Source: Candidatus Obscuribacteraceae bacterium (lineage in GTDB: Bacteria; Cyanobacteriota; Vampirovibrionia; Obscuribacterales; Obscuribacteraceae). Taken from it: 64,000 bases of DNA. The stretch covers positions 32,001-96,000 of the forward strand of contig JBGAHS010000004.1 of NCBI GenBank assembly GCA_044226015.1, read 5' to 3'. Numbering within the stretch: position 1 is the first letter of the stretch; each line of letters starts with the position of its first letter. The notes under the pieces are model-generated. The model saw only the letters and a list, made by a program, of their open reading frames with translations. It ran no database searches and had not been told where the DNA came from. The position numbers and the translations under genes are program-made. This document shows, piece after piece, positions 16,917-49,600 of the stretch.

Positions 16917-18116
16917 ATGGGCAACGAAAATGTTCGTGATAATTCTGAAGCAGCTGTGCGTGATAAATCCAGAGAAGGGTCTGAAGAAAGACAAGCAACT
17001 GGTGCATTGCAAGAACAAGCAAATGATATTCGCAAAAACGAAAGACCTTCGGCAATAGCTGCTGACGAAAAATCTCTCGGCTTGCCAACGCTTTCTCTCG
17101 TTGACACCACCCCTGGTGCAAAAGACCTCTTCGACATGCATCAGGGCGCTGTTGATAAGAAAACTGCTGCTGAGCGAGTTGATGATGTCAGAAACGGTGG
17201 TCAGAAGATATTAGACCCCGACAAAACTTCTTCCAAGCATCTGACGGAAGCACAGGAAAAAGATGGACTCGTTCAATCAAAGGAAGGACCATATCAGGTA
17301 GCAGAACGTTTGTTGGGTAAGAGTGCATCACAAGAAGAGAAGATGGCGCTAGTGAAGGCTATGAGAAGCCAGTACAACGAGGAGACTGCTAACAAAGATC
17401 CCCATATGAAGAGCCTTTCTGTTGGTCGCAGCCTCCTGAACGAGCAGAACTATGACAAAGTCATTGCTAATATCAAGGACGAAGCTCTCCAGAAGAGCGT
17501 AGTTTCTAAGTTAGAGCAAAAGCAAAACAACGAGCCAAAGAAAGTTGAGCCTAAGCAAGATGACCAGAAAAAACTCGAACCTAAGGTTGAGCCAAAAGTA
17601 GAACCAAAAGTTGAGCCAAAGGTTGAGCCTAAAGTAGAACCTAAAAAAGAAGATCCAAAAGACTCCAAAGCTGAGCCTGGCAAGGATGCTCCAAAGCCTG
17701 AAAAGGCAGAACCGGTAGAGCAAAAGCTTGGGCCGTTAGGCTCGAAGTTTATTCCAGTTACAGAGAAGCAACCAGAAAAATCCACTATTGCTTCAGTTTA
17801 CAGCTCCGGTCATACGACGGCTTCTACCCGTCATTTCAATCCCAATGAGCCTACTGTCGCCATCAAACCAGAGGTTGCTAAAGCCATGGGGCTCCGTTTC
17901 GGAGACGTTATAAAAATAACGCGCGGGGAAAAGAGCACGGAAGCCGTGTACACCGATGCTGGTCCGTTCGTTAAGGGACGCGCAATTGACCTTTCTACAG
18001 CTGTAGGACGAAGACTCGGAATTACTTCTGATGGTATCGGAATCGCTCCCGTTAAGTTCGAGAAGATCGGAAGAGAGCCAGGTTTCATGGGGCACTCCAA
18101 AAGAAAACGCCACTAA
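16917..18116 (+). CDS. polar leader + LysM-like domain + EPK linker + RlpA-like DPBB lytic transglycosylase
   Basis: ASVYS..TAS...DAGPFVKGRAIDLS; no signal peptide or lipobox. Confidence 0.85.
   Translation: MGNENVRDNSEAAVRDKSREGSEERQATGALQEQANDIRKNERPSAIAADEKSLGLPTLSLVDTTPGAKDLFDMHQGAVDKKTAAERVDDVRNGGQKILDPDKTSSKHLTEAQEKDGLVQSKEGPYQVAERLLGKSASQEEKMALVKAMRSQYNEETANKDPHMKSLSVGRSLLNEQNYDKVIANIKDEALQKSVVSKLEQKQNNEPKKVEPKQDDQKKLEPKVEPKVEPKVEPKVEPKVEPKKEDPKDSKAEPGKDAPKPEKAEPVEQKLGPLGSKFIPVTEKQPEKSTIASVYSSGHTTASTRHFNPNEPTVAIKPEVAKAMGLRFGDVIKITRGEKSTEAVYTDAGPFVKGRAIDLSTAVGRRLGITSDGIGIAPVKFEKIGREPGFMGHSKRKRH
17574..17645 (+). repeat. 12-bp coding tandem repeat, (V/L)EPK x6
   Basis: GTTGAGCCAAAA-type units with synonymous variation. 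Confidence 0.9.
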
Positions 18117-18332
18117 GAAGCAGGTGAAAAGTGCCAGCAATGACACTTCTTTCCACGCGGTCATTTCTTGATGAAGGTCTGATTGCCGGTAGAGATTTCA
18201 TTTAGTTAATCAATTCTATCGTTGGCAACCTGAGCAATTGCAGCTCGTTCTTGGTTAAAGCATGAGAGCCATCACCGGGAATTGTGGAATAGTCTCAGAG
18301 TATAATCTCTGGGCTGATTGGAGTTGTGAGGA

Positions 18333-19421
18333 ATGACCGAACAGGGCGCAATTGCTCTACCTTCTGTGGAATCTCGAGTCTTTGGAGTACTCTCTGATGG
18401 AACCGAGATTCGAGAATACACATTGCGAAATTCTCGTGGGATGGTTTTGAAGGTCATAAATTATGGCGCTGTCATTACAGAGTGCCTGGTTCCCGATCTC
18501 CATGGTGAGACAGTCAACGTCTGTCTGGGTTTTGATAATTTGGAATCGTATGTTGCCAAACATCCTCGCTTTGGCTCAACCATTGGGCGATATGCTAATC
18601 GAATAAGTAACGCCCAGTTCAAGCTTGACGGTAAGACCTATAAGCTTGCGGCTAATAAGGGCACTAGTACCATCCATGGTGGCAATGTTGGTTTTGACAA
18701 GAAGGTTTGGAAGGTCGAAGATACTGGACACACTCCAGCAAATGCTTGGATAGAAATGAGCTACCTTAGCCCCGACATGGAAGAGGGGTTTCCTGGAAAT
18801 TTGAAGGTTGAGATTACTTTCGCACTAGATGAGAGCAATTCTGTTTTCATTAAATACAGAGCGAAGTCAGATAAGCCTACTCCTGTAAATTTGACTAACC
18901 ACAGCTATTTCAATCTTGCAGGCGCTGGCAACGGAAATGTCCTATCTCACGTGGTCAGTTTCAACTCGAATTTATACACTCCTTTGAATGACAGCCTTGT
19001 TCCGACGGGAGAAATAGCTCCTGTGGACAACACTCCGTTCGATTTCAGGCGTCTCACGAAGATAGGCGCTCGAATCGAAAAGGCAGGCGGGTACGATCTG
19101 AATTACATCATTAATGGGAGCCCTGGAGTCATAGGAAGCGCAGGTGCGGTCATCGATCCAGATTCTGGGCGTGTTTTGAGCGTATACACAGACCAGCCAG
19201 CCTTCCAGTTCTTTACTGCCAACTCTTTTGATGGCTCCATCGTAGGAAAGGGTGGCGCCTACAACGCCTATGCAGGATTTTGCATCGAAACTCAGCATTA
19301 TCCAGACAGCGTGAACCAGCCATCGTTTCCCAACACAATTCTGCGTCCCGAAGAAGAGTTTTCCTCAGTAACACAGTACGCCTTTTCAAATATGCCCCAC
19401 GGCTGGATCTTCTTCGAATAG
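18333..19421 (+). CDS. galM: aldose 1-epimerase
   Basis: GRYANRI, HGG, GFPG, NLTNHSYFNL, CIETQHYPD. Confidence 0.96.
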   Translation: MTEQGAIALPSVESRVFGVLSDGTEIREYTLRNSRGMVLKVINYGAVITECLVPDLHGETVNVCLGFDNLESYVAKHPRFGSTIGRYANRISNAQFKLDGKTYKLAANKGTSTIHGGNVGFDKKVWKVEDTGHTPANAWIEMSYLSPDMEEGFPGNLKVEITFALDESNSVFIKYRAKSDKPTPVNLTNHSYFNLAGAGNGNVLSHVVSFNSNLYTPLNDSLVPTGEIAPVDNTPFDFRRLTKIGARIEKAGGYDLNYIINGSPGVIGSAGAVIDPDSGRVLSVYTDQPAFQFFTANSFDGSIVGKGGAYNAYAGFCIETQHYPDSVNQPSFPNTILRPEEEFSSVTQYAFSNMPHGWIFFE

Positions 19422-19525
19422 TCTCAGCTGGCTGCTGTTTCTATAACCGCTTTCACGATTTCACAATCAGCTAACGTTGTGCGTCTAAATTGTTTAGAAC
19501 AGGGCACCGGAATTTGAGGTGAGTG

Positions 19526-20299
19526 ATGAGCGCTAAATATAGAAATAGAAAGAAAGGCAGAAGAGTAAACGGCAGTGTTCTTTTTGAGTCTGCAGCCGGC
19601 ATGACCGTTATTAGTATTTTCTTGGTGCTTGTTTCTGCCTTTGCGGTTAACACTTTCAGCTATATGGTTTATGGAGCAAAGATTCAAGTCATTGCAAATG
19701 CAGTTGCGAAGCAGGTAAGCAATCGTACATTCTGGTTGGGTGCTCGTCGCCCGCTATTTCAGCGCACCGGCAGTGGTCTAGCAAAGACTAGAGAACTTGC
19801 AAATGACTATGCGAAAAGACTTGGTGAAATTTACGGTTTGCCAATTTCTCCTGTAGTCACTTTTCCTGATGCGCCTGATGAACAGGTTAACGGTGTTGCG
19901 TTTACTCCTGTTACCGTGTCAATGTCGCAGATTCCGCTGCCGTTTAAGTTTCGTTCTATCTTTCCTGAGTTCTTTAGTGTTTCAGCAGTTGGTATCGCAT
20001 CCGAACAAGTCGATGCCCCTCCGGCGTTCATTCGGCTTGGATTTAAGCTAATAGATCCTTCTGTATCTAATCCCTCCGTTACTAACAACACGCAGGTCGT
20101 TATGATTCCCGCCTATGGTTTTCAAACCGACTCAGGACTGACAAGCGCCAATCTCGGTGGCACTAGTAATAACAATGATGTGGTAGGTAATCAGCCAGAT
20201 CCTCGCTACTGTTTGTGGGCTGGGATAAATGGACAACTGCGCTCGAATGCGCCATACATTACGGGACCGAACGGAAAACAAATTCTTTCGTTCAATTGA
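19526..20299 (+). CDS. TadE/Flp-type pseudopilin-like protein, paralog 1
   Basis: Basic leader RRVNG|SVLFE then hydrophobic helix (class III signal). Confidence 0.72.
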   Translation: MSAKYRNRKKGRRVNGSVLFESAAGMTVISIFLVLVSAFAVNTFSYMVYGAKIQVIANAVAKQVSNRTFWLGARRPLFQRTGSGLAKTRELANDYAKRLGEIYGLPISPVVTFPDAPDEQVNGVAFTPVTVSMSQIPLPFKFRSIFPEFFSVSAVGIASEQVDAPPAFIRLGFKLIDPSVSNPSVTNNTQVVMIPAYGFQTDSGLTSANLGGTSNNNDVVGNQPDPRYCLWAGINGQLRSNAPYITGPNGKQILSFN

Positions 20300-20380
20300 A
20301 ATGTCCCTGGTGTCCGCTTTTTCGAGAGGGGATCTCTGATTGATTCTCAAATGAGTCCCAGAAACAAATCAGCTTTATTC

Positions 20381-20411
20381 AAAGAGTCCACTCAGCTGGA
20401 CTCTTTTCTTT
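20381..20411 (+). terminator. intrinsic terminator between the pseudopilin paralogs
   Basis: AAAGAGTCCA-ctcagc-TGGACTCTTT then TCTTT. Confidence 0.8.
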
Positions 20412-20505
20412 GGAATCGTTCTTTCAGAAAGAGCAGCTTATGTCACAGATGGCTAACGTTTCTCTGTTAACTTATTAACACTGAAGGGAATCTGAGGTGA
20501 GACGA

Positions 20506-21282
20506 ATGCGAAGCAAGGGAATCATGAGAAAGAGCCGAAAAAACAATGGCGCTACTTTAGCTGGAGTTGCTGCTGTTTTGTCGGTTGCTAGCGTTCTGTT
20601 TTTGCTTGTAGCTGCCGTCTGTTTGAATGGATATGCCTTTTACGACTACACTGGAAAAGCTCAAGTCATAGCAGAAGAGGTCGCCAAACTTGTTGGACGA
20701 CGTAGCTATTTTCTTGGCGCTGCACGTCCGCAATTTCAGGCGGCAAACGCTGGTGAAAGCCAGAAACTGGCTCAAAGCTATGCAGAGCATTTAGCGGATG
20801 TACTTCACATTCCACACTCTGCCGGTATCAACATCAAGGTACTATCGAACGAATTGCAAGATTCAAATCTTTCGATGACCAAGGTCCAGGTGGAGTTGAG
20901 CAATGTTAGTTTACCCGCCGATATCGCTGGCGTGCTTCCGAAGATGGCCGATATTAAAGCTGTTGGCGTTGCATCAGGTGCGTCGGAGGCACCCCCAGCG
21001 TTTGTTCGTTTTGGTTTCAAACTAATCGACCCTTCACAATCGAATCCATCCGTTACCGATGCTACGCAGGTTGTGATGTTGCCTGCCTACGGTTTTCAAA
21101 CTGATTCCGGACTGAATTTTGCTAACCTGGGTGGAACAGCAAATAACAATGATGTTGCAGGCAATCAACCAGACCCAAGTGCTTGCTTATGGGCTGGTAT
21201 AAATGCCTCTCCAGATGCCCTGCGATCAAACGCTCCCTATGTTACAGGACCTGATGGTAAGCGCATAACAGCGTTCAACTAA
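20506..21282 (+). CDS. TadE/TadG-type pseudopilin-like protein, paralog 2
   Basis: RKSRKNNG|ATLAG plus hydrophobic helix; C-terminal ~95 aa highly similar to paralog 1. Confidence 0.7.
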   Translation: MRSKGIMRKSRKNNGATLAGVAAVLSVASVLFLLVAAVCLNGYAFYDYTGKAQVIAEEVAKLVGRRSYFLGAARPQFQAANAGESQKLAQSYAEHLADVLHIPHSAGINIKVLSNELQDSNLSMTKVQVELSNVSLPADIAGVLPKMADIKAVGVASGASEAPPAFVRFGFKLIDPSQSNPSVTDATQVVMLPAYGFQTDSGLNFANLGGTANNNDVAGNQPDPSACLWAGINASPDALRSNAPYVTGPDGKRITAFN

Positions 21283-21311
21283 ACAGTTTTTTCTGGCTCA
21301 TCCTGCAGGTA

Positions 21312-21983
21312 TCAGATCTTGATCTGGTACCCGTATCCCCTTACGTTTAGTATCTGAATTTTGGAGCCGATTGAGCTAAGTTTCTCCCTAAGGCTTGTAA
21401 GAAATACTCGGATGGTACCGCTGCTGATATCAACAGAATCGGGCCAGGCAGTCGCTCTCAGTTCTTCATGAGCAATTATTCGCTTTTGGTTTGAAAAAAG
21501 CAATGCCAATACATCGCATTCTCTTTTGCTCAGTTGAATTGAGTTTCCGTTGCATGAGACCTTACTGGATCCGCTAGACAATTCGAGGTCGCCACAGGAA
21601 ATTGATCCTGGCTCATCGATAGGAGCCCTACGCAAAACTGCTCGAATGAAACCATTGAGTTCTAAATGGTCAATTGGTTTTGTAAGGTAACGATCGGCTC
21701 CGCTGTCAAATCCTTTAACTTTGTCAGGAGAAGAGCTTCTTGCAGTTAGCATTATTACAGGAGTTGCGCCGCCCGATTGTCGGTATTTTTGCAAGAGTTC
21801 AGGACCTGTCATGCCAGGCATTTCCCAGTCGAAGATCAAAACATCATAGTCGTATGTCTTGATAAAGTCCCAGGCTTCTTCAGCCGTACTGCAGCAGTCA
21901 ACGCCATGACGTTCTTGCTGCAAAATATCTCTCACAAGCTCTCTTGTGTCTTTGTCATCGTCAACGATCAAAACTTTGGCCAT
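21312..21983 (-). CDS. OmpR-family response regulator
   Basis: VLIVDDD, IFDWEMP, YLTKP; winged helix ending NVRGYGY. Confidence 0.95.
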   Translation of the reverse strand: MAKVLIVDDDKDTRELVRDILQQERHGVDCCSTAEEAWDFIKTYDYDVLIFDWEMPGMTGPELLQKYRQSGGATPVIMLTARSSSPDKVKGFDSGADRYLTKPIDHLELNGFIRAVLRRAPIDEPGSISCGDLELSSGSSKVSCNGNSIQLSKRECDVLALLFSNQKRIIAHEELRATAWPDSVDISSGTIRVFLTSLREKLSSIGSKIQILNVRGYGYQIKI

Positions 21984-21992
21984 ATCAATTAC

Positions 21993-23465
21993 TCAAAGGG
22001 CTTCTATCTCAGCTGCAGGTACTGTGAACCAGAATGTACTGCCTTGAGAATTACTATCGACTCCGATTTTACCACCGTGCAAATCAACGAGCATTTTTGC
22101 AATCGGTAAACCAAGACCTGTGCTGCCTTTCTTGGAGCGCTTATCGTCTGGAACCTGCTCGTATGGAAGAAATATGACTTCTCTGAAATTCTCTGGAACG
22201 CCAGGTCCATGGTCCTGAATTCTTACTTTCAGAAAGGATTCTTCTCTCTCGTAGTCTATTTCTATAGCTGTATCTTTGCCAGTGAACTTAATTGCATTGC
22301 CGAGCAAATTGATGATTACTTGTGCTAGTCTTTCGGGATCAGCAACAATCATTTCATTGCAGCTCTCTGCCTTTAACTGCACACTCTTTGCTTTTGCGAT
22401 CGGCTCAAGTTCGTTGATACAGTCTTCAACCACATCATCGATTCTCACAGATGACAGAGTAAGTTTCAACTTTCCGGATTTCAGTTTTTCCAGATCAAGG
22501 ATGTCGTTCACGAGACCTGTTAGTCGTTTTACGACCCGGACTGAGCTCTCCAGTCTATATTCCTGATCATCATTCAGCTCCCCGTAAACACCCGAGCAGA
22601 GCGCGCCCAGTGCTAAATTTAGAGCTGCTAGTGGATTACGAAGGTCGTGGGTCACCATCGCCACAAGCTGTTCTTTTCGTGCTTCAATTTCTCGTAGCTC
22701 ATTTGTCATTTTATGAAAGAATCTGTCGAGTGCTGCCAACTCGTCTTTTCCTTCAAGCGGAGGATTGAGCTTTTCTCCAGACGGTAGTTTGTTTGTATTA
22801 TCGATAATTACGTTGAAACGTTTTGCGAAATCCCTGGCGAACAAAAGCAAGAGTCCTGCGCTCATCAACATGTTGATCAAAAAACCGCCGATAACTGCTG
22901 ACAGGAACAATGTTCTTCCTTGTTTGATGCTCTTGCTTTCGTCGTAACTGGTTCGAGTTCGTTGAGAAAGAATCGATTCAATATCGCTAAGCAGCTCTCC
23001 TACGTCACTCTGAATTTCAAGCGCCTTAAGCTGTTTGCTTCCAATTGAAGAGGCGTCGAGATCCATACTCTGTCTGACTTCTATAAGTTCTCCCAGAACC
23101 TTTTTCAAACTTCGTGAAGTCTTTTTTGCGCTTGCTCCTTCCACATTGTTTTGTGTGGCAAGCAAGTTCATTACCTCAGTTTTTCTCTCAAGCTTTTCGT
23201 AAACACTATCGAATCCCTTTAGAAATGTCTTGTCTCGTGAATAAGCGAAAGCTGAAATCATTCCGATTGCTCGATAACAAAGCGTGGAAGTCGTCATCAG
23301 ATCTGTAGTCTGATTGCGATATTGGAGGTCTCTAAAGTTGATCTGTTCCACTGTTCTAAAGGCGCCCAGAAGTACCAGTACAAATATGAACTGCGCCAAG
23401 ATTGGCGTAGCAAGAAGCAAAATTACCCGTTGAATAAAGGTCATGTCTGCGGCTGATAAATGCAA
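21993..23465 (-). CDS. membrane sensor histidine kinase (2 TM, HAMP, HisKA, HATPase)
   Basis: HDLRNPL, NLLGNAIKF, DHGPG, GLGL; start may be ATG 23444. Confidence 0.95.
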   Translation of the reverse strand: MHLSAADMTFIQRVILLLATPILAQFIFVLVLLGAFRTVEQINFRDLQYRNQTTDLMTTSTLCYRAIGMISAFAYSRDKTFLKGFDSVYEKLERKTEVMNLLATQNNVEGASAKKTSRSLKKVLGELIEVRQSMDLDASSIGSKQLKALEIQSDVGELLSDIESILSQRTRTSYDESKSIKQGRTLFLSAVIGGFLINMLMSAGLLLLFARDFAKRFNVIIDNTNKLPSGEKLNPPLEGKDELAALDRFFHKMTNELREIEARKEQLVAMVTHDLRNPLAALNLALGALCSGVYGELNDDQEYRLESSVRVVKRLTGLVNDILDLEKLKSGKLKLTLSSVRIDDVVEDCINELEPIAKAKSVQLKAESCNEMIVADPERLAQVIINLLGNAIKFTGKDTAIEIDYEREESFLKVRIQDHGPGVPENFREVIFLPYEQVPDDKRSKKGSTGLGLPIAKMLVDLHGGKIGVDSNSQGSTFWFTVPAAEIEAL

Positions 23466-23561
23466 AATTCACACGTTCTTAGTTAACTTTGCCCTGTTTT
23501 TGACACTCTAAATCGAGAATTAGTAAGCGTTTGTGGAAAGGAACTAAGAGGAGGAGCGAAC

Positions 23562-25673: not shown

Positions 25674-25674
25674 C

Positions 25675-26703: not shown

Positions 26704-26779
26704 TGTGTTTTTCCAAAAACCGACTTATTAGATTACACCGAGACTTGGAAAAAGTTGCGCCAAAGAATAATTAACTCGT

Positions 26780-28033
26780 TTATGACCCGTGCAGTCTCCG
26801 GTAAGCTGCCGTTCCTTTGACATTGGCCGCCGGAATGTAATTGTCTTTAGACCACCCTGCAACGAATCCATCTTTGGGTCCCATCATGGAAAGGAGAACT
26901 TTTGGAGTTACGGGCTTGAAGTGGCTGCTATTTGCTTTATCAGGGTCACCAATTATGTATTTACCGTCTGAAGTTTTTCCAGCAATGAAGATGTAATGCC
27001 CATTTCCAGTGTGCGGATTTTTTACGTGCCCGATAGCGGAGTGTCCCATAGCGAGTTCTTTGTCCAGATCTTTGAGTGTCTGTTCATCGACTTTCTTGTA
27101 GGAATATGCTTTTGCATTTAGCCCCAGTGTCTCAACTTTGTCCGCCATTGATTGCAGATCGCCTCTGTAGCCACGCCCTATCGTACCAGCCAGTTGTTTG
27201 AAGGACTGAGCTTGTTTTCCATAGTCTACCGGACGACCAGAAAACTGGTCGCTATATAGCATTGCAATTGAAAACGCTGAGCAAGATACTCCATCATCTT
27301 GCGCTTTGTAGAATACTTTTAGATCCTCAATTGACCTGGTTACGTTTAACTTCTTGTCTTGCGGAATGTTGAACCCCGGAAGCTTATCTTGTTGTTTGCT
27401 ATCTGTGCGAATATCGAGGAATGGAATTGTCTGATTTTGCTCTGTTTTTTTATCGTCGTTTCTTATTTCTAAGTATGGAAGTAGTGGTGAGGGGTGCTTT
27501 TGTTTTGCATCTGATGACTTTGCATCAGCCTGTTTTATATCTGCGGGCTTCGGGTCTGCTGGCTTTGTTTCAGAGGATTTTGAATCGGCCTGTCGGGCGT
27601 CTGATGAACCGCTATCGAGCTTTTTCTTTTCTGCATTTCTTGTATCAGCTGCGATTTTCGCGTCAGGTGTCTCTGCCGATTTGTTTTCATTCTTCTTGAT
27701 TCCCTCTCTAATCCACGACGGAACCTCTGCCGTAAGATTCTCGCTTTCATGCTTAGCCGAGGTGAAAGGACTTTTAGAGCTGGCAGGGTCTGCGTCGATA
27801 GACCATGGATTCTTTCGTCCAAATGGACTGTTGCGTGCCGACCCCATGTCTATCTGTAACTGAGGCAGATACGGCTGCTGACTTTGTGATTCTCTTGTAG
27901 TTTGGGAAAAATCAAGGCTGGGCGCATTGATAGAATCTCGCAAAAATCGAGATGCATCAAATTTGATTTCTTGATTCGATGGTGCTTGCGAATCAGTATC
28001 GCGATGGCTGGCACCCTGAGCCAGTTCTGACAT
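26780..28033 (-). CDS. polar leader + C39-like cysteine peptidase
   Basis: QDDGVSC (Q..C), GHYIFI (H), IIGDP (D); start MSELAQ at 28033. Confidence 0.82.
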   Translation of the reverse strand: MSELAQGASHRDTDSQAPSNQEIKFDASRFLRDSINAPSLDFSQTTRESQSQQPYLPQLQIDMGSARNSPFGRKNPWSIDADPASSKSPFTSAKHESENLTAEVPSWIREGIKKNENKSAETPDAKIAADTRNAEKKKLDSGSSDARQADSKSSETKPADPKPADIKQADAKSSDAKQKHPSPLLPYLEIRNDDKKTEQNQTIPFLDIRTDSKQQDKLPGFNIPQDKKLNVTRSIEDLKVFYKAQDDGVSCSAFSIAMLYSDQFSGRPVDYGKQAQSFKQLAGTIGRGYRGDLQSMADKVETLGLNAKAYSYKKVDEQTLKDLDKELAMGHSAIGHVKNPHTGNGHYIFIAGKTSDGKYIIGDPDKANSSHFKPVTPKVLLSMMGPKDGFVAGWSKDNYIPAANVKGTAAYRRLHGS

Positions 28034-28656: not shown

Positions 28657-28714
28657 AATGACACCATGAGTGGTGGCACAATGCGCAGAATGTTGCGGCG
28701 TGAAGCTGAACTCG

Positions 28715-29370: not shown

Positions 29371-30066
29371 ATGAAGTGTTCATCAGTGCTCTTAAGCCTG
29401 TTTTTGAGTCTCTCCTTTTCTGCAGTGGCTTTTGCTGCTGATGAACCGGCTGCGCCTGCAGCTCCAGCCGCCCCAACTACTCCAACTACTCCAACTAGCT
29501 CTGCCCCGGAAGCTCCAGCTAAGGCTGAAAAGTCCAAGGCTAAAGATGCTGAGAAGGAGAAGGAAAAAGAGTTAGCTAAAGAAAAAGCGGCTCAGAAGGC
29601 GGCAGAGAAAGCTGCGGAAAAAGCATCAAAGGAATCAAAAGCTGATTCCAAGCCGAAGGAAGCGGAAGCTCCGCCGACTGAAACATTAGTGGATCTCGCT
29701 ACAAAGCATGGGTACTCTGCTGCATGGGCTAACATGTTCAAGGGAGAGTGGAGCATCGCCGCGTGGATTCAAAATCTTGAAGCAAACAGTGCGCCGGTAA
29801 TAGAGACACAAGGGGTCGATGGGCACAGCTACATTCTTGGCTCAATGTGTAAGTCTAACGATTGCGCTAACGATAGGCTCATTGCCATTTTTAACGCTGA
29901 TCATAAGCGCGCATGGGGAGTTCAGATTACCATTCCAGCTGGTGTCGGCAAGGACGGTGAACGTCATCCGAAGAAGTACGCCAACTTAAAATATTATGGT
30001 AACCCTGATGTGAACATGAAGAAGGTTATCGCAGGTTTCCTGGAGAAGGATCCTACCTGGAAGTAA
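29371..30066 (+). CDS. ivy: Ivy-family lysozyme/lytic transglycosylase inhibitor with a long PAT/KAE-rich linker
   Basis: Signal peptide; YSAAW..M...W, CKSNDC loop, RAWG, YYGNPD. Confidence 0.8.
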   Translation: MKCSSVLLSLFLSLSFSAVAFAADEPAAPAAPAAPTTPTTPTSSAPEAPAKAEKSKAKDAEKEKEKELAKEKAAQKAAEKAAEKASKESKADSKPKEAEAPPTETLVDLATKHGYSAAWANMFKGEWSIAAWIQNLEANSAPVIETQGVDGHSYILGSMCKSNDCANDRLIAIFNADHKRAWGVQITIPAGVGKDGERHPKKYANLKYYGNPDVNMKKVIAGFLEKDPTWK

Positions 30067-30103
30067 GTTGATAAGGCTTGGTATCAATCTCGATACGCTT
30101 TGG

Positions 30104-31846: not shown

Positions 31847-32842
31847 TCATGACTGCGATGGCAGTGCATGGCTTTGCAATTGAAGTTTGACATATACGGG
31901 CAAATGATCCGAACCTACATTGGGTCCTAAGTGGCGATCAATAACCGCGAAATCTTTGCTGACCAGGCAGTGGTCTATTGGTATCAATGGCGGTACCACA
32001 AGAAGTGCGTTCCAGGATGGCTGTATTCCCATGCCTTGTTCGCTGTCTTTCAAATTGCTGCTTGCTAGCAGCCTTTTGTAATAGGTTGACCAGGGGGTGG
32101 AATTTAAATCACCAATCAAAATCGTGGCTAATTTTGTATCCGCTAGCTCGCTTGCAAGGCGGCTGAATTCTTTGTTGCGATTTTGCCAGCGTTTTCGTCC
32201 CGAAGGAGATGGCGGGTGTTCTGAAATAATGAGAACGGACTCTCCGGCAAGCTTGCAGATGCCTCTTACGCCATAGCGTCTTTCTGAATTTGTTCTTGTT
32301 GGCTGCACTCTTTCGATAGGTACCTTGCTAAAAATCGCCGCACCGCCTGCGATGCCTTCATCGAAATGGAACTTATATTCAGGCAGCTCGTTGCTTATTC
32401 TCTTCATCCAGGTCTTGTTAACTTCGCTCAAGCAGATTATGTCTGCATTGCTTTGTTGCAAGTAAGCTATGGTTTTTGTATAGCTTCGGTTTCGATTTCC
32501 GTAGAGGTTCAAAGCCACCATGGTCAATTCGCTACGCGGGTTCTCACAGCTCTGTTTCGCATCAACTGGAAGGTAAAAAGGCACAATGTGCCAGAGGTTC
32601 ATTATTACGCCAAGGCACGCAAGAAAACTCCCTTTTCTGTTTTTCAGCAGAAACAGCGCTGAGAAACATAAGCCCAGTCCAATTGTCCAGACCATGCGCA
32701 ACTGATTGCACTGGTCTGAAAGATAGCCTATCGCTGGCGTAAAGCTGACCGATGAGATTGCTATCAAAAGAAGGGTAAGAACAATGATGCTGCTAATCAG
32801 AAGCAAGTGAGTAAGCCGCCATAGTGTTTTCATGCCATCCAC
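31847..32842 (-). CDS. membrane-anchored endonuclease/exonuclease/phosphatase family protein
   Basis: 3 TM; DIICLSE, GDLN, IDH, GSDHLP. Confidence 0.92.
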   Translation of the reverse strand: MDGMKTLWRLTHLLLISSIIVLTLLLIAISSVSFTPAIGYLSDQCNQLRMVWTIGLGLCFSALFLLKNRKGSFLACLGVIMNLWHIVPFYLPVDAKQSCENPRSELTMVALNLYGNRNRSYTKTIAYLQQSNADIICLSEVNKTWMKRISNELPEYKFHFDEGIAGGAAIFSKVPIERVQPTRTNSERRYGVRGICKLAGESVLIISEHPPSPSGRKRWQNRNKEFSRLASELADTKLATILIGDLNSTPWSTYYKRLLASSNLKDSEQGMGIQPSWNALLVVPPLIPIDHCLVSKDFAVIDRHLGPNVGSDHLPVYVKLQLQSHALPSQS

Positions 32843-35552: not shown

Positions 35553-35597
35553 AAACTTGTCCTTGCAATAAATACGCTTAGACTGAATTCTAATACA

Positions 35598-37870: not shown

Positions 37871-37901
37871 ATGGCTCTCAAAGTAGAGAGCCCATTGTAC
37901 G

Positions 37902-39377: not shown

Positions 39378-39386
39378 TTTCTTTTC

Positions 39387-39971: not shown

Positions 39972-40074
39972 TCACTTAGTCTCCCCATACTTCTACACGG
40001 GCTATCTGGAAAAGTTGTGCTTTCCGAATTTAATTAATTCAGAGCTATAATTGCGTAGTCTTTTGGTTTCATGT

Positions 40075-42416: not shown

Positions 42417-42475
42417 TAAACTGCTTTACTTAGTGACATGCTGGCGTAAAATCATAGTGTATTTTGGAGTCAAAG

Positions 42476-43327: not shown

Positions 43328-43349
43328 GATTAGTACAGAGGAACCAATC

Positions 43350-44141
43350 GTGAAATCAAAGAAGGCAATAAGTTCTCAGTTCGGTTGGGTGGGCAATTCT
43401 CTTGCGTCTTTTCTCGTTCTTGCATTTCTGTCCCAGCTTACAGCTTGCTCAGTTGACAAAAAGATGACAACTACCGGGTCTGAATCAACTCCAGAAGCAA
43501 GTCAAACTTCAGTGAATCAAACAGCTGTGAAGCCTGCTGAAGAACCTGAATCGCTGAAGCAGATAGATATTGATATTCCGAAGGAAGACTTGAAGAACGA
43601 TACTCTTAGTTCAGTCACCTTTAAGAATGCCGAACATGCGATTGCCTTCAAGATGATGCATAACAAAGATGGTGGCGCGATTATTGACGATACCGGCAAG
43701 GTAAAATTCTCTTTTGTCGAAGACCACAAAGAGAAAGCCAGACGGCTTATTCGTGTTAAAGATGGCAAAGGCGCAGTAATTGGTGTGGTGTCAGTTGTCG
43801 GGGTGGATTTGATTGAGCTTGCTGACGCAAACAAATACAAGCAGTACGCCTTGAAGTTCGATGGTGAGCGCGTGTTTAAGCTTAAGGATGCCGAAAATAA
43901 CGTTCTCTATAAAATCAAGGACGAGTCCTATGGCGTAAAAATTGAAACTGCTGATGGCACTGTAGCCGGCAAGGTTAAGGTTAAGGAAGAGAAGGTGACC
44001 TTAAAAAATGCATCAAATGAATTAGTACTTTCCACACGTTCAGAAGTGCCTGCTCCAGCTTTAGCCTGTTTTGCAATGGACAAGCTAGGTGAGAAAGAAA
44101 AGTATTCGCTGGCTTACTCTTTGATGTTTTTGAGGTTGTAG
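43350..44141 (+). CDS. putative lipoprotein with beta-hairpin repeats
   Basis: Lipobox-like LTAC; repeated (L/V)KD..G/N.V units. Confidence 0.75.
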   Translation: MKSKKAISSQFGWVGNSLASFLVLAFLSQLTACSVDKKMTTTGSESTPEASQTSVNQTAVKPAEEPESLKQIDIDIPKEDLKNDTLSSVTFKNAEHAIAFKMMHNKDGGAIIDDTGKVKFSFVEDHKEKARRLIRVKDGKGAVIGVVSVVGVDLIELADANKYKQYALKFDGERVFKLKDAENNVLYKIKDESYGVKIETADGTVAGKVKVKEEKVTLKNASNELVLSTRSEVPAPALACFAMDKLGEKEKYSLAYSLMFLRL

Positions 44142-44142
44142 T

Positions 44143-44415
44143 ATGCCAGACCATAATTCACTTCCCTGTAGATACAAAGTTGGGTTTCTGTTCAAGCGAA
44201 TTTGCGGAAGGTTGAGCCGGGAAGGTTGCAACTTTTGTCAGGGAATGGCGCGCGACCCAAACCTCGATGAGGACTATGACCCATATTTCAATGACCGAAG
44301 AATCTATAACCGAAATTCAAGTTATTACAGGTCATACGATTTTACCGATTACGATGCGTACAATTTCGAGTCCGAATCAGACACAAATTACGAAAATGAT
44401 TTAGATGCCAGCTGA
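44143..44415 (+). CDS. small protein with 4 Cys and a Tyr/Asp-rich acidic tail
   Basis: Starts 1 bp after the upstream stop; overlaps the next ATG by 11 bp. Confidence 0.7.
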   Translation: MPDHNSLPCRYKVGFLFKRICGRLSREGCNFCQGMARDPNLDEDYDPYFNDRRIYNRNSSYYRSYDFTDYDAYNFESESDTNYENDLDAS

Positions 44416-45457
44416 CACCTGGTTGATTTATGCAATGGGTGGTGGATGGGGGCATTTGACGCGTTCATTGAGCCTGGCAAAAGCTGCTGCAATCAGGCAT
44501 CATGTTCTTATTATCAGCAACTGTAGTTATCTCGATTACATGCAAAATGATCCTAATTGGACCCGCCTGACTAAAGGTCTTAGCATTGAAATCAGGAATT
44601 GCGCGCACTTTAATTCAAGAGACAATAAAGCAGAACTTACTGAGTTGATTGAACGGGAAGTTGCAGATTTGAGCTGTTCTACCTTCATTGTAGATAGCTT
44701 CCCTAGAGGGCTGTTGGGTGAATTGCAGAGTGTTTTGTCCCGCCGCAAAAAAACAGCTAAGACAGTCTTGGTACATCGCGATCTGAATCCAGCTTATGCA
44801 GAGCAGTACAATCTACGAGAATTTGTTCAGTCAAATTTTGATTTGGTTCTCAATCCTGGTGAAGGAACGCGCGCGCTATTCCAAGAGTTTGCCGTTGAAT
44901 CTGCACCCTGGCTAATTCGTGACTCAGCAGAGTTGGATTCAGTAAACGACGAGCGAATAAACTGTTGGTTTGAACCAGGGAAAAACACAATTCTTATTTG
45001 TCCATCTGGCAGAGATATAGAAATGGAGCAGTACGTGAGAATAGCTGAGTGTCTCGCTGTTCGATTTGAAGCATGCAACTTTTTGCTGCTAAACAATGGA
45101 CTGTCTCGCAATAATGAGAGATCAAATTTGAGGCAGGTGAAATATTGGCCAGCGATTGATTTGCTCGCTTCGTCCAGTCTTGTTGTTGGTTCTGGAGGCT
45201 ATAACATTTCCAATGAATGCCGAGCATTAGGAGTGCCGCTTCTAGCGTATGCTCAATCACGTATGTATGATCGCCAGAAGCTGCGGTTGCTCGCTTTCAA
45301 TCAGGCGATCTTTTCATCTGAGTCTGAACTCGTTGACCTTGTTGAGAAAACAGTTTCTTCAACAAACGACCAGCGTCAAAAGGCTACATTCGATAACGGT
45401 GTGTATTCTGCCGTGCGGGAAATTGAACGATTGCAAGGGTGTATGAGACAATTGTGA
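44405..45457 (+). CDS. GT-B glycosyltransferase (GT28/GT1-like)
   Basis: YAMGGGWGHLTR, VDSFP.G, GSGGYN..E, DRQ. Confidence 0.85.
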   Translation: MPADTWLIYAMGGGWGHLTRSLSLAKAAAIRHHVLIISNCSYLDYMQNDPNWTRLTKGLSIEIRNCAHFNSRDNKAELTELIEREVADLSCSTFIVDSFPRGLLGELQSVLSRRKKTAKTVLVHRDLNPAYAEQYNLREFVQSNFDLVLNPGEGTRALFQEFAVESAPWLIRDSAELDSVNDERINCWFEPGKNTILICPSGRDIEMEQYVRIAECLAVRFEACNFLLLNNGLSRNNERSNLRQVKYWPAIDLLASSSLVVGSGGYNISNECRALGVPLLAYAQSRMYDRQKLRLLAFNQAIFSSESELVDLVEKTVSSTNDQRQKATFDNGVYSAVREIERLQGCMRQL

Positions 45458-45467
45458 AACATCAATT

Positions 45468-46397
45468 GTGAGTACGAACATGAAGCGAGCGATTTCAAAG
45501 ACAATGTGGTTCTTATCTCTGGCGCTGCCGCTGCTTTTAGTTGAGTCCACGCCGACTTCGGCAAAGAACTATATCTTCAGGACTTCCAATACTCCTGCGC
45601 GAGTTCAGTCTCTGGGTGTGGACACGGTCAATGCTGTCATAACCATTGGAAATCAGCGCCACTACGGGTTGTTTATAGTAAATAGTCCAAAGGGAAGCGA
45701 ACTGGGCGATGACATGTCTTTGAAATCTGGGCAGGTGTTACTTACTCTTGATGGTTACTCGGTATTGACTGCAAAGCAAGCTGAGAATTGGATTGCGCAC
45801 CGACCGCACAAGCCACTCGTGTTTACCTTTGCTATGATCGTAAACGGGGTTCCAAAAGTATTTACCCGAGAAATTGCATCCAAAAGCACGTTGAATCCTG
45901 GCTCACAGAATGTTGCTTCTTCCAGCAATTCTAGACCTGACCCTGCAGAGCGAGACTATTCCACTAGCGAACTCGAATCAGAATGCATTTCGATGATTAA
46001 TGAGAGTCGCCGAAGAGGCGGTCTTGGACCCGTAGTCCAGGACTCGCAGCTGGCAGGATTAGCTCGAAAATACGCTGACTACATGGCTCAACACAAAGAG
46101 GGCTACGAAATTACAGTGAGCCGAAGCCCTCATGTGGACCTGCAGGGACGATCACCACAAGAGCGTGCCAATGAGTATGGTGTCAACCGACCTATCGCCG
46201 AAAACATCGGACGTGCATCTAGAGGACCATTCGAATTAGACATCAAGCAACTGCGCAATCTACACAAATCTATGATGGATGAAGGTCCGGGTGGCGGTCA
46301 CTACGAAACAATCATGAATCCGAATGCCAGAATGGTTGGCGTGGGGGTGGCTAGAATTTCAGGCAGGTTTTATTTGACCGAAGAATTTTCGAATTGA
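45468..46397 (+). CDS. secreted PDZ-like + CAP (SCP) domain protein
   Basis: INESRR, AENIG, GHYETIMNP..VGVGV; PDZ-like N-terminal region. Confidence 0.85.
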   Translation: MSTNMKRAISKTMWFLSLALPLLLVESTPTSAKNYIFRTSNTPARVQSLGVDTVNAVITIGNQRHYGLFIVNSPKGSELGDDMSLKSGQVLLTLDGYSVLTAKQAENWIAHRPHKPLVFTFAMIVNGVPKVFTREIASKSTLNPGSQNVASSSNSRPDPAERDYSTSELESECISMINESRRRGGLGPVVQDSQLAGLARKYADYMAQHKEGYEITVSRSPHVDLQGRSPQERANEYGVNRPIAENIGRASRGPFELDIKQLRNLHKSMMDEGPGGGHYETIMNPNARMVGVGVARISGRFYLTEEFSN

Positions 46398-46491
46398 TGT
46401 AGTCGAGCCGGTTCTTGCACTTCTCCGGCTGATCCGTCCCACTTACTTTCTTTGTCACCAAGGTTCATCGACAACCGGGTTGGCTTGTATT

Positions 46492-46519
46492 CCACAAAAT
46501 CTTAATGCCTCTTGAATTA
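46492..46519 (+). promoter_or_regulatory. conserved upstream motif, copy 1 (CCACAAWWTCTTAATGCC-N4-GAATTA)
   Basis: 22 of 28 positions identical to 47731-47758. Confidence 0.6.
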
Positions 46520-46543
46520 GCATCAGATTAGGGGTTTGGGGGC

Positions 46544-47716
46544 ATGGCTATGGTGAGATCTTCGGAAAATTCTGGGGCTGAACGGGCGGAGAGAAACGCC
46601 TCAGAGCAAAAGGGAACAGAGTCTTCAGTCCATCAGGAAATTACTCAATCGCGCCAGACGGCAACTCAAGATGGTGTGCAACAGAAAGAGCAGAGCAAAA
46701 ACGATACCAATCGGTTGGAGAATCAGGGACAACTTCCGAGTCTAACCTTAGCCGACCAAGATACAAATGATGCAAAAACTCGCGGCATGAAAGCTGCGGA
46801 AAGCCCAGATTCCGCTAAGGAAGGAACCGATAAAAATAAGAGTGGCAGCCCTGAAGCAGCTAAGCAAACCAAGGAATCAAAACCCGAAACTCAAGAGAAT
46901 AAATCAGAAGCTGCAGAAATGCTCGGCGACTTTTCAATCTCTCCGGAGTCATCATCTTCGGCTGCCGGTGATGACAGAACAAAAGTAGCGGATTCGCCCG
47001 TTCATCCCTTTAACGCAACAGCTAGCGAATACAAAGACATGCTACGGTCTGGACCGAAAAAAGGTATTGATCGCATTTGTTCGACCGATGCCCAATCGCC
47101 AGCAGTAAGTAAGCAAGAAATACAAAACACCTGTGGAATTGATTTGAAATCGAAATTCCCCGAAGTGAAAGCGGGTGTTGTTCAGGTTTATGGCGAAGGT
47201 GGTCGAATTGGTACCGGTTTTCTGGCCTGCGAGAAGAACAATTGCCAAATCGTCACTGATGAACATGTCGTGGGCAGTGGAACGCAAGTGATGCTCGTAA
47301 AAGATGGAAAGGCAGCGCCTGGTACCGTCACGGGGCGCGATTCTGCAAGTGACCTTGCGAGCATTTCTTTTGATGCTAAACGTCTTCCGGGTCTAAAACC
47401 TCTTCCCCTGGGAACTGGAACGGACCTGGCTGTTGGCGCACCAGTGTTTGCTGTTGGGCATGGAAAGCAATTGCCAGAGCAATCAGTCATTCCAGGACAA
47501 ATTACAAACGCCTCAGTTGATATCAAAACGAGAGATGGTGCTTTATATGCTAACCAATTTGATTCGGATATGAAAGCCGTTCCGGGGCATTCGGGAAGCC
47601 CTGTACTGGACCGTGACGGTAAGGTAGTTGCTGTAATAGGAAGCAGTGGTAGAACTGGTAGCTCTGGTCCCAAAGTTGAAAAAGTAAAAGAACTGCTCAG
47701 AAAATCTACTCATTGA
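46544..47716 (+). CDS. polar leader + trypsin-like (S1) serine protease
   Basis: Triad TDEHVV / DLA / PGHSGSP; no signal peptide, no PDZ. Confidence 0.9.
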   Translation: MAMVRSSENSGAERAERNASEQKGTESSVHQEITQSRQTATQDGVQQKEQSKNDTNRLENQGQLPSLTLADQDTNDAKTRGMKAAESPDSAKEGTDKNKSGSPEAAKQTKESKPETQENKSEAAEMLGDFSISPESSSSAAGDDRTKVADSPVHPFNATASEYKDMLRSGPKKGIDRICSTDAQSPAVSKQEIQNTCGIDLKSKFPEVKAGVVQVYGEGGRIGTGFLACEKNNCQIVTDEHVVGSGTQVMLVKDGKAAPGTVTGRDSASDLASISFDAKRLPGLKPLPLGTGTDLAVGAPVFAVGHGKQLPEQSVIPGQITNASVDIKTRDGALYANQFDSDMKAVPGHSGSPVLDRDGKVVAVIGSSGRTGSSGPKVEKVKELLRKSTH

Positions 47717-47730
47717 GAAATCCGTACGTG

Positions 47731-47758
47731 CCACAATTTCTTAATGCCGATCGAATTA
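47731..47758 (+). promoter_or_regulatory. conserved upstream motif, copy 2
   Basis: CCACAATTTCTTAATGCCGATCGAATTA. Confidence 0.6.
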
Positions 47759-47902
47759 TCGTTTTTATCTAAAGGTTCGCACACTTACTAAGTTTAGCTT
47801 GACAGGTTCATTTCCAGCAGTACTCACCGCTGGTTTTAGGACTGAGTAAAACATCGGGAAATAGCACTCTTCCTCTGCTTGGAAGAGCAAGGCAGGTTTG
47901 TA

Positions 47903-49600
47903 ATGGCAAAAGAAGAAACAGAAAAATCAAAAGAGTCTTCAAGGGAAAGAGAAACAGAACCAGCAGCAGCAAGCGCTGGTGAAAGGTTCCAAAAGGAAGT
48001 TGAGTCGACTCGTCAGGAACAGCGCGATTCAGCTAACCCAGCCAGTGACATCCGCAAGCAGTCTGAGGACTCAAAACTCAATGCAACGAGTCAACCCCAA
48101 GACACGGCAAGTCAGCATTTGCCAAAAATGGACCTCGTCGATGGCGCAAATAAAGATTCATCGCGTGGTCTGAAGACGGATCTTCCTGGTAGCGCAAAAT
48201 CCGGCTCAGAGACTCAAACTCGTGGTGACTCTGGTGGCTACTCGGTCGAAAAATTTGACGCAGAGGGAAATCGCCGTGAAGTTCGCAACACAGACAAAGA
48301 CGGCAAGCCAGTATTTGAAGGCAAGTTCGACAGCAGTGGCAAGCTTGAGGAGGGCAAGTACTATCAGAACGGAAAACTAAGTGAGACTCAAACTCGTGGT
48401 GACTCTGGTGGCTACTCAGTCGAGAAATTTGACGCAGAGGGAAATCGTCGCGAAGTTCGCAACACAGACAAAGACGGCAAGCCAGTATTTGAAGGCAAGT
48501 TCGACAGCAGTGGCAAGCTTGAAGAGGGCAAGTACTATCAGAACGGAAAACTTAGCGAGACTCAAACTCGTGGTGACTCTGGTGGCTACTCAGTCGAGAA
48601 ATTTGACGCAGAGGGAAATCGCCGTGAAGTTCGCAACACAGACAAAGACGGCAAACCAGTATTTGGAGGTAAGTTTGACAGCAGTGGCAAGCTTGAAGAG
48701 GGCAAGTACTATCAGAACGGAAAACTTAGCGAAACACATACTCGCAATGAGTCAGGTGGTTATTCTATCGAACAAGCTAACAAGCCGGAATCGCGTAATC
48801 TCAACGAACAGCAAGTTAAGGATGCCCATGTACGAAAGGGTGAAGGTCCTTATCAGGTCGCTTCTCGGCTTCTTGGTGACGAAGCTAGCCAGAAAGAAAA
48901 GGTCGCACTCGCATTAGCTTTTAAAGGACAATACGACAAAGAAACCGCCCATAAAGACCCAGAAATGCGGCACCTGAAAACTGATCGCAGCATGCTGAAC
49001 GAAAGCAACTACAAAGAAGTAATGGAACGAATCGGCAATGATTCCTTGCGTGAGAGCATTAATACAAAACTCAGTCAAACTAACAAACACCCAGGACAAG
49101 AACAAATCGGAAGCAGAGAGCCCAAGACAGAGCCCAAAGCTGACCATCATAAAGCAGAGCCTCAAAGAGAAGGAACGGGCAAAATCGATAGATCGAGGTT
49201 TGATCAAGAACTAAAAGATCCCAAAGTGATGGCCGCATTTGCTGGCAGAATGCACAGCGAAGTAGGCAGCCAGGGAAAAGCAGCTCAACTAGCTTTCGCC
49301 GAGGAAGTAATGAATAGAGCTACTTCAAGAGGGCAATCGCTTATGCAAGCATTGAGTGGTCGCTATTACCCCACTTCCACCCCCGGACGTTCAGACAATC
49401 CTTCCTATGTTGAAACAATTAACAAAGCATGGAAAGAAGGTACTGACACTACCCATGGTGCAACAGGAAACGCTAGCGGAAAAGTAGGTTTTGGTCGAGG
49501 AGGATTTCAAACTGTCAAGATCGGTGGCGAAAAATTCGGAATGGAAGCTAACGACGTAGCCGCCGGTTGGCTCCAGAAATACCAGAAACTGAAGGCATAG
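47903..49600 (+). CDS. polar leader + 58-aa repeats + LysM-like domain + SleB/CwlJ-like cell wall hydrolase
   Basis: SEVGSQG...EEVMNR, GTDTTHGAT and KIGGEKF resemble Hydrolase_2 motifs. Confidence 0.75.
   Translation: MAKEETEKSKESSRERETEPAAASAGERFQKEVESTRQEQRDSANPASDIRKQSEDSKLNATSQPQDTASQHLPKMDLVDGANKDSSRGLKTDLPGSAKSGSETQTRGDSGGYSVEKFDAEGNRREVRNTDKDGKPVFEGKFDSSGKLEEGKYYQNGKLSETQTRGDSGGYSVEKFDAEGNRREVRNTDKDGKPVFEGKFDSSGKLEEGKYYQNGKLSETQTRGDSGGYSVEKFDAEGNRREVRNTDKDGKPVFGGKFDSSGKLEEGKYYQNGKLSETHTRNESGGYSIEQANKPESRNLNEQQVKDAHVRKGEGPYQVASRLLGDEASQKEKVALALAFKGQYDKETAHKDPEMRHLKTDRSMLNESNYKEVMERIGNDSLRESINTKLSQTNKHPGQEQIGSREPKTEPKADHHKAEPQREGTGKIDRSRFDQELKDPKVMAAFAGRMHSEVGSQGKAAQLAFAEEVMNRATSRGQSLMQALSGRYYPTSTPGRSDNPSYVETINKAWKEGTDTTHGATGNASGKVGFGRGGFQTVKIGGEKFGMEANDVAAGWLQKYQKLKA
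48206..48772 (+). repeat. 174-bp coding tandem repeat, about 3.25 copies
   Basis: Equivalent codons at 48209, 48383, 48557 and 48731; nearly identical DNA. Confidence 0.97.

Follow-up and report, generated by a model that had tools for sequence, protein, structure and literature searches.

Here, we identified a family of N-terminal leaders in Candidatus Obscuribacteraceae bacterium that stand at a fixed distance from the start ATG on many unrelated cargo proteins; the leader has a family-level range, and VirD4 and two VirB4 ATPases are found order-wide. The family came to light in a window of 64,000 nucleotides (the whole stretch of DNA analysed, positions 32,001 to 96,000 of contig JBGAHS010000004.1), which contains four leader-bearing genes. 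Judging from sequence patterns, the leader is probably an export tag, whatever the route. By elimination, we tentatively suggest that it may be read by the chromosomal type IV secretion systems (T4SSs) of the order, which would serve to bring lytic enzymes and toxins to nearby cells.

The leader comprises about 25 polar, mostly acidic residues, a short element A near residue 27 (consensus [AE]-S-x-[RK]-L-x-x-[DE]-[AV]), a variable spacer and an element B near residue 56 (LP-x-L-x-[LI]-x-D). The four genes in the window are gene 1 (16917..18116, plus strand, 399 aa), gene 2 (26780..28033, minus strand, 417 aa), gene 3 (46544..47716, plus strand, 390 aa, with an alternative ATG at 46550) and gene 4 (47903..49600, plus strand, 565 aa). 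Element A reads ATGALQEQA in gene 1 (16995..17021, plus), ASRFLRDSI in gene 2 (27929..27955, minus), ESSVHQEIT in gene 3 (46619..46645, plus) and AGERFQKEV in gene 4 (47975..48001, plus), lies at residues 25-35 and, from its residue pattern, would form a helix; the initial annotation had noticed this similar segment near residues 26-38. The four genes and their LP motifs were likewise as it had described them, with motif starts exactly at 17082, 27868, 46733 and 48119. Element B, whose pattern points to a strand, is LPTLSLVD in gene 1 (17082..17105, plus), LPQLQID in gene 2 (27848..27868, minus), LPSLTLAD in gene 3 (46733..46756, plus) and LPKMDLVD in gene 4 (48119..48142, plus). The RG[ML]K continuation is present in two of these genes but is not a feature of the family.

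Two of the four C-terminal assignments made initially were confirmed by Pfam: gene 1 ends in an RlpA-type DPBB (DPBB_1, lytic-transglycosylase-like; 17787..18056, plus, E 1.1e-6) and gene 3 in a trypsin-like protease (Trypsin_2; 47210-47635, plus, E 1.6e-22). The C39-like cysteine peptidase at the C-terminus of gene 2 gave a weak match below the cut-off (E 0.013), with Q..C/H/D residues seen by eye. Gene 4 consists of the leader, three to four 58-aa repeats, a domain in common with gene 1 (residues 93-215 of the latter, between leader and DPBB, LysM-like by eye) and a putative SleB/Hydrolase_2-like cell-wall hydrolase domain (49175..49597, plus). This last domain had no Pfam match; Hydrolase_2 appeared in 27 of 30 ESM Atlas matches (score 0.94), a Glu was invariant in the alignment, and Foldseek returned the SleB structures 4fet and 4f55 with target TM of 0.62-0.66 at non-significant E (>2). 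A purine-rich, Shine-Dalgarno-like stretch lies 5' of all four ATGs, the weakest being that of 47903, and relatives' leaders begin in the same register as the four called starts. A Sec or Tat signal uncovered by the true starts had been named as an observation that would speak against the initial reading; in-frame starts do exist further upstream (16839, 28150 and 47879), and by eye none of them adds a signal peptide.

So short and degenerate a motif might simply reflect polar N-termini of low complexity, common descent or an over-fitted model, an explanation that the genome-wide statistics refuted. In an in-sample model, the four window genes scored 23-35 and the next-best of 56 window open reading frames (ORFs) scored 5. 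The strict motif occurred 13 times per 1.34 M internal residues, so that 0.03 occurrences are expected in the N-terminal zones of the window; the corresponding P(>=4) of ~5e-8 is overstated because the motif was chosen post hoc, and a model trained on relatives is the fairer test. With this model, built from 38 relatives' leaders, the window genes ranked 2, 12, 14 and 26 among 5,868, and 28 proteins scored at least 12 versus 0-1 in each of eight composition-keeping shuffles. In this genome, 29 proteins scored above all 18,401 internal-Met controls, approximately 56 passed at an FDR of about 10%, and approximately 100 did so once the requirement for element B was dropped. Equal frequency of the motif in ordinary cytoplasmic proteins was another adverse outcome foreseen by the initial annotation; none of 64 conserved proteins reached a score of 8. 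The element-A pattern occurred in 14 of 32 seeds against 6.1 for shuffled sequences (post hoc P 0.0005), and its position relative to the ATG varies little (quartiles 22-30). The leaders are unrelated at the DNA level: only one of 1,540 leader pairs was alike, and the leader is therefore not a DNA repeat.

Two results did lean towards this explanation. In an unseeded Gibbs search, element A failed to emerge and the real total lay under that of the shuffles, which means that the sampler had not converged. A leader profile matched (E<=0.001) only 11 of 1.84 billion representatives, several of which were training sequences and one a repeat artefact. Separately, a first ungapped leader model was over-fitted, and an HMM from the four window leaders alone retrieved almost no further matches. 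In favour of the main reading, when homologues were picked by C-terminal domain alone, the leader was present in 17 of 70 at p<1e-3. No Pfam family covered the leader, nor did any NCBIfam family in a run on 74 leaders; a scan of genome contigs gave one irrelevant match, PHROGs nothing useful for 15 proteins, and PDB sequence searches no matches.

A leader model gave 63 matches, of which five were removed by eye before the Pfam search and two afterwards (PfkB and TPR), leaving 56 members. One of the five was tRNA-synthetase-like, and another later proved to be a calpain paralogue that may be real. The polar, signal-less N-termini described for the window genes proved general, since the maximal 11-residue hydropathy within the first 45 residues did not exceed 1.24 in any of the 56 members. 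Element A is commoner than the LP element; additional internal LP copies were not enriched (2.5 versus 2.2 per 10,000 aa), and no shared C-terminal motif was seen by eye.

The 56 members fall into 38 cargo clusters and combine a constant N-terminal part with variable toxic C-termini, as in polymorphic toxins. Among 54 members searched against Pfam, 17 matched wall-hydrolase, protease, RHS, LysM, ChaN/HopBA1-like or toxin-deaminase families and 28 had no match at all. Annotated cargoes are chiefly wall hydrolases, proteases and RHS giants; FHA domains also occur, as do non-lytic members (PfkB, thioredoxin-like and HEAT). The element-A-only set (approximately 110 proteins listed) yielded seven clear matches among 40 hand-picked proteins, namely M4, S53 pro-domain, S41, glucosaminidase, glycoamylase, LysM and EEP phosphatase. 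Paralogues bearing a hydrophobic N-terminus rather than the leader numbered four versus one for DPBB, two versus one for M28, and five versus at least five for trypsin. Directly behind one member, a BURPS668_1122 deaminase toxin gene, comes a SUKH/SMI1 immunity gene (gap 0). Considering ORFs of at least 100 aa, this was the one clear immunity pair among the 56 members, together with two small, unassigned downstream ORFs. Only 14 of the 56 members have a same-strand gene close downstream, and the products of these genes were not enriched for signals (5/14 versus 960/2,453); clustering of members' neighbours revealed no common chaperone or immunity family.

Within the family, the leader was detected in 65 of 103 genomes, and none of 95 genomes of the class outside the order yielded it. 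It was not found in G001, in genera g22 (0/6) and g5 (0/3) or in family f2 (0/3), although a T4SS is present there. The genome-wide statistics, the kinds of cargo, the toxin with its immunity partner and the confinement to one family give good support to the idea of a lineage-specific leader on polymorphic lytic effectors, put forward from the window alone. The interpretation as a whole is partly supported, and its export or chaperone-binding component is what we infer from sequence.

VirD4 and two VirB4 ATPases are near-universal across the order, with VirD4 in 98 and C1-type VirB4 in 103 of 107 genomes, and the genome under study encodes both, as expected if it has T4SS substrates. The ATPases resemble the monoderm CD1110/CD1115 types. 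A gene for a DUF2225 zinc-finger protein adjoins both virB4 genes, and VirB4 and DUF2225 were present in 25 of 25 order genomes and in none of 95 class genomes outside. The match of leader and T4SS at the order level is a single evolutionary event. Melainabacteria are diderm; a search covering VirB10/TrbI gave no clear outer-membrane core, only four weak, scattered TrbI matches below the cut-off, and the C1 locus encodes one weak OEP-like protein. A Replic_Relax gene adjoins virD4 in G000 and G031, which suggests DNA transfer. None of 20 relatives' scanned T4SS loci had a leader gene adjoining virB4 or virD4; the one candidate near the C1 locus of this genome is a 97-aa ORF that has element A but not B, and relatives' extra C1-type virB4 copies are orphans with no leader genes alongside among the matches listed.

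If the T4SS reads the leader, the polar segment would be disordered and keep the protein away from the Sec pathway. Element A would fold into a short amphipathic helix and element B into a beta-strand, and both would bind the VirD4 coupling protein or else an adaptor, the candidate being the DUF2225 protein. The cargo would then cross the envelope in one step, wall hydrolases and proteases would lyse or digest the target, and cargoes toxic in the cytoplasm would require adjacent immunity genes. The broader proposal, that the order-wide monoderm-type T4SS might be a protein-injection weapon with an N-terminal helix-plus-strand tag and 100 or more cargoes per genome, seems doubtful.

The initial annotation had advised looking for a co-occurring secretion machine, and T4SS and Tad were indeed present. 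Export through Tad, through type IV pilus/secretin systems or through a machine not yet recognised is an unlikely role for the leader, more so than the broad weapon proposal. The genome does carry two Tad loci, one type IV pilus locus and two secretins, TadE/TadG-like genes lie within the C1 VirB4 locus itself, and Myxococcus Tad pili are used in contact killing. TadA occurs in 99 of 107 order genomes, mostly at 87-98% identity; because T4SS and Tad genes alike belong to the order's core, co-occurrence cannot cleanly separate the two systems. On the other hand, TadA is also found outside the order (3/5), where the leader was not found, and secretin-based routes normally load cargo that Sec or Tat has already brought into the periplasm, whereas the leader proteins bear no such signals. 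The T3SS/flagellar and eCIS machines also suggested at the outset, and the T6SS added to the comparison here, fared much worse; disordered N-terminal leaders with a chaperone-binding strand are typical of T3SS and eCIS cargo, and the RHS and FHA domains among members would agree with machines of these kinds. A leader for T6SS, eCIS or T3SS/flagellum is very improbable and largely refuted: the VipB/TssC sheath of T6SS was found in 0 of 107 order genomes with a working positive control, and the T3SS/flagellar gate FHIPEP in none of G000 and 1 of 107. The phage/eCIS sheath was not found in G000 (with positive control), and the T4 gp19 tube was found in 0 of 107, in a search that had no positive control. 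For T7SS, the only FtsK matches were VirB4 and an HAD-fused ATPase, and no WXG/LXG was seen in members.

Alternatively, the leader could be an intracellular tag (chaperone-binding, self-inhibiting, condensate-forming or localising) on enzymes that stay inactive until lysis or vesicle release, which we consider about as unlikely as the Tad and pilus routes. Such a tag would accord with two short-N-terminus, signal-less M4 proteases without the leader in the same genome and with the scarcity of adjacent immunity genes beside wall hydrolases. However, one leader serves 38 unrelated cargo clusters and is therefore no fold-specific pro-peptide; S53 members have it ahead of their own pro-domain; the RHS giants and the toxin with its immunity partner point to other cells as the destination; and encapsulin (PF04454) was not found in G000 (92% complete), with a positive control.

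Whatever its role, the leader offers a way, through sequence, into a large set of proteins, most of them unannotated (over half without a Pfam match), in an uncultured sister group of Cyanobacteria. As an export tag, it would predict that 1-2% of the proteome is an arsenal of toxins and enzymes, and would bring within experimental reach both possible attacks by Obscuribacterales on other cells and the cargo of the lineage-wide chromosomal monoderm-type T4SSs. If T4SS delivery is true, common sludge, soil and freshwater bacteria would be unrecognised contact-dependent predators, with a tag that reads out the whole effector arsenal of Obscuribacterales. An N-terminal T4SS tag would be unusual, the opposite of the C-terminal T4SS tags.

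Polymorphic toxin systems such as LXG/WXG100, MIX and RHS join a constant N-terminal trafficking part to a variable C-terminal toxin, and the RHS repeats and the BURPS668_1122 deaminase with its SUKH immunity gene are shared with them. Unlike in LXG/WXG100, MIX, T3SS and eCIS, the leader here matches no Pfam or NCBIfam family, and the corresponding machines were not found. No literature on this leader or on any Obscuribacterales T4SS was found, subscription papers and supplements being outside the scope of the search. For Vampirovibrio chlorellavorus, which belongs to the same bacterial class, hydrolases were proposed to enter prey via a T4SS; that system is T-type and partly plasmid-borne, with no signal proposed in the available text (PMC4451040). 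In contrast, the VirB4s here are chromosomal and CD1110/TraC-like, and none was found in the 95 genomes of the class that lie outside the order.

The chromosomal T4SS of Patescibacteria, MPF-FATA-like according to the available text, is similar in being lineage-wide and vertically kept, with a monoderm-type VirB4 and coupling protein, many-copy VirB2-like pilins and a proposed co-option from conjugation (PMC12102498). It differs in phylum and envelope, and the available text describes no common substrate leader; the words Cyanobacteri-, Melainabacteria and Vampirovibri- are absent from the main text (PMC12102498). A precedent for the T4SS reading is offered by Xanthomonas, whose T4SS delivers wall hydrolases via a VirD4-binding tag; this best-studied of antibacterial T4SS tags, the XVIPCD, is a folded C-terminal domain of ~120 aa on ~13 effectors (X-Tfe) per genome that are, in the available text, always paired with immunity genes (PMC8740702). 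The tag described here is N-terminal, ~60 aa long, mostly polar and carried by 56-100 proteins, most of which lack a visible immunity gene; no Pfam match to an XVIPCD-like C-terminal domain was obtained in members. VirD4 as the receptor was shown for X-Tfe and is what we infer here, and both systems appear to share one tag on variable wall hydrolases and other toxins together with a chromosomal T4SS (PMC8740702).

The initial annotation had proposed that four open reading frames in the window, 16917..18116 (+), 26780..28033 (-), 46544..47716 (+) and 47903..49600 (+) (genes 1 to 4, respectively), share a signal-less leader, and both the frames and the leader motifs were found where they had been described. 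The N-termini of all four are polar, mostly acidic and devoid of a hydrophobic signal, and the leader comprises element A ([AE]-S-x-[RK]-L-x-x-[DE]-[AV]) and element B (LP-x-L-x-[LI]-x-D). Regarding the cargo domains, DPBB (gene 1) and trypsin (gene 3) had clear Pfam matches and C39 (gene 2) was weak in Pfam. The SleB assignment of gene 4 was not recovered by Pfam but was supported by ESM Atlas and by Foldseek with a predicted model, for which SleB catalytic domains were the only matches with appreciable probability. In gene 4, the leader and the catalytic part are separated by three to four near-identical 58-aa repeats (48200-48800, +) with weak MORN_2/PepSY_2 matches. An Ivy lysozyme-inhibitor domain occurs in a protein with a signal peptide (29371-30066, +) located 1.3 kb from gene 2; this protein is a candidate for general protection against wall hydrolases.

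Close homologues of proteins from the genome containing the window (G000; 8.19 Mb, 92% complete) bear the labels Candidatus Obscuribacter, Obscuribacterales or Melainabacteria, and the genome was accordingly assigned to the order Obscuribacterales. It was searched with a model of the two-part leader (polar start, element A, spacer and element B) based on 32 hand-picked seeds, with leave-one-out testing. Twenty-nine proteins scored above every one of the 18,401 internal-Met controls. At ~10% FDR there were 63 proteins, of which seven were removed and 56 kept as members. The position of element A in these members is residue 27 (quartiles 22-30) and that of element B residue 56 (quartiles 52-60), and 49 of the 56 have a net negative charge before element A. 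An element-A-only model with relatives as seeds yielded ~100 proteins (~6 false expected), just 34 of which overlapped with the first set. With a model built from 38 relatives' leaders, 28 proteins scored at least 12 versus 0-1 in composition-keeping shuffles, and the window genes ranked 2, 12, 14 and 26 of 5,868, although this test is only partly independent because a G000-derived HMM had been used to find the relatives, which include some orthologues. If the leaders were a DNA repeat, they should be alike in nucleotide sequence; only 1 of 1,540 pairs was, and this explanation is ruled out. The leaders are attached to 38 unrelated cargo clusters, and a score of 8 or more was reached by none of the 64 conserved proteins used as controls. 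The leader is a real family, undescribed in the literature searched.

A Pfam scan of the 54 members outside the window assigned 17 to known families (ChaN/HopBA1-like, RHS, M28, glucosaminidase plus amidase, EDR1-type peptidase, trypsin, clostripain, calpain, YkuD, LysM and toxin-deaminase) and nine to other or weak families, and 28 matched nothing; relatives contributed additional DPBB, weak CHAP, weak NlpC/P60 and RHS-LysM cargo. Among 81 proteins of 15 cargo families, a leader was scored in 28 and a hydrophobic N-terminus was present in 16; many of the remaining 37, which had neither, show an A-like segment by eye. Proteases are expanded in this genome and mostly signal-less (21 trypsin-like, 12 M4, 11 S53 and 9 calpain-like). 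In one case (G000:C11:437411-439689; locus L028), the gene for a leader-bearing BURPS668_1122-type deaminase toxin has a SUKH/SMI1 immunity gene immediately downstream, and this pair sits within a run of other leader-like genes. Giant leader proteins of 3,000-7,750 aa with RHS and/or FHA domains are encoded at G000:C11:406381, C12:364671, C9:323699 and C5:113839, and small ORFs after two of these genes may be immunity genes. For most members, which are scattered single genes, no shared neighbour gene was found in the G000 neighbourhoods.

At E<=0.1, the leader HMM matched 65 of 103 Obscuribacteraceae genomes (nine of these 65 had supplied training sequences; chance expectation ~0.1 match per genome) and none of three sister-family genomes. 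At E<=0.01, matches were present in 10 of 25 genomes of the order Obscuribacterales and in none of 95 Vampirovibrionia genomes outside the order, which are smaller. Seventeen of 70 homologues chosen via the C-terminal domain of gene 4 carry the leader; most others have polar, signal-less starts that by eye resemble diverged versions, and it is absent from the four most distant. Therefore, the leader drifts between genera, and its apparent absence elsewhere may reflect divergence. A genome of the same genus but half the size (G001; 4.2 Mb, 91% complete) has no detectable leader; it retains VirD4, TadA and both VirB4s.

Of the secretion machines suggested, T4SS-like and Tad loci are present, and T3SS/flagellar export was found in 1 of 107 order genomes. 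The eCIS markers sought, a sheath in G000 and a tube protein in the 107 genomes (the latter search lacking a positive control), were not found, nor were EssC and encapsulin in G000; T6SS was found in none of the 107. Export-type loci in G000 include two Tad, one type IV pilus, two secretins and two T4SS-like loci. One T4SS-like locus (G000:C10:63000-87000; L075, L076) encodes Replic_Relax, VirD4, VirB4 and DUF2225, together with genes resembling VirB3, VirB6, VirB8 and VirB2, which were identified from their position and by eye; the other (G000:C1:171000-205000; L073, L074) contains a second VirB4 and TadE/G-like genes. Both are chromosomal, with one VirD4 and two VirB4 in all, and highly conserved across the order: VirD4 occurs in 98 and the C1 VirB4 in 103 of 107 genomes (identity ~70-95%), and VirB4 and DUF2225 in 25 of 25 order genomes but in none of the 95 class genomes outside the order. 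The range of TadA reaches outside the order. No description of these two loci was found in the literature searched, and genome-survey supplements could list their genes.

The DUF2225 zinc-finger protein (L075:13038-13721; L162) adjoins the C10 virB4, and a paralogue adjoins the C1 virB4 in many relatives. In G000, the C1 virB4 (G000:C1:183271-185976; L073) is interrupted by an in-frame double stop. This is probably an assembly error or a strain variant, since nearly all relatives have an intact gene and public contigs from two studies have different letters at this site. Extra C1-type virB4 copies with 55-69% identity occur in several relatives (L113, L115, L116, L117, L118, L119, L120, L132); most are orphans lacking other T4SS genes, and one genome (G006) has a tandem pair. 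VirB2-like pilin genes, near-identical and at least seven in number, lie at G000:C6:245000-292000 and C3:86000 with two leader genes interspersed; they were recognised by eye, without a Pfam match. Three long proteins (C7:664808, C9:248904 and C4:152798) contain this pilin segment as a fusion, and C1:951942 is a fusion with the C10 pilin.

We consider it quite probable that the leader is an export tag by some route. In the favoured reading, the tag would be read by the coupling protein of the T4SS or by DUF2225 acting as an adaptor, on the model of XVIPCD-VirD4 recognition in Xanthomonas (PMC8740702) and of the T4SS predation model of Vampirovibrio (PMC4451040). The tag, its cargo, its range and the machines were observed directly in the sequences, and the helix and strand structure, receptor, export, target and lifestyle are inferred. 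Export of the cargo via the T4SS is a tentative reading, with slightly less than even chances. Against it, genomic linkage of leader genes to virB4/virD4 was not found, the machine occurs in genomes where the leader is undetected, a relaxase-like gene adjoins virD4, a clear outer-membrane core was not found, few members have an immunity gene, and the Xanthomonas precedent is a C-terminal tag.

With respect to known systems, the leader corresponds to no family model. Among 1.84 billion representatives searched, 11 matched; several of these are training sequences and one is a repeat artefact, and the two new ones that were inspected have the same leader type. The words Melainabacteria and Obscuri- are absent from a 2025 T4SS review (PMC12857230). 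The nearest T4SS ATPases are the CD1110/CD1115 monoderm types, below the cut-off, and in such ATPases the G000 loci resemble those described for Patescibacteria (PMC12102498). The leader set does not fall within X-Tfe, T3SS, T6SS or T7SS substrates, and behaves like a polymorphic effector system.
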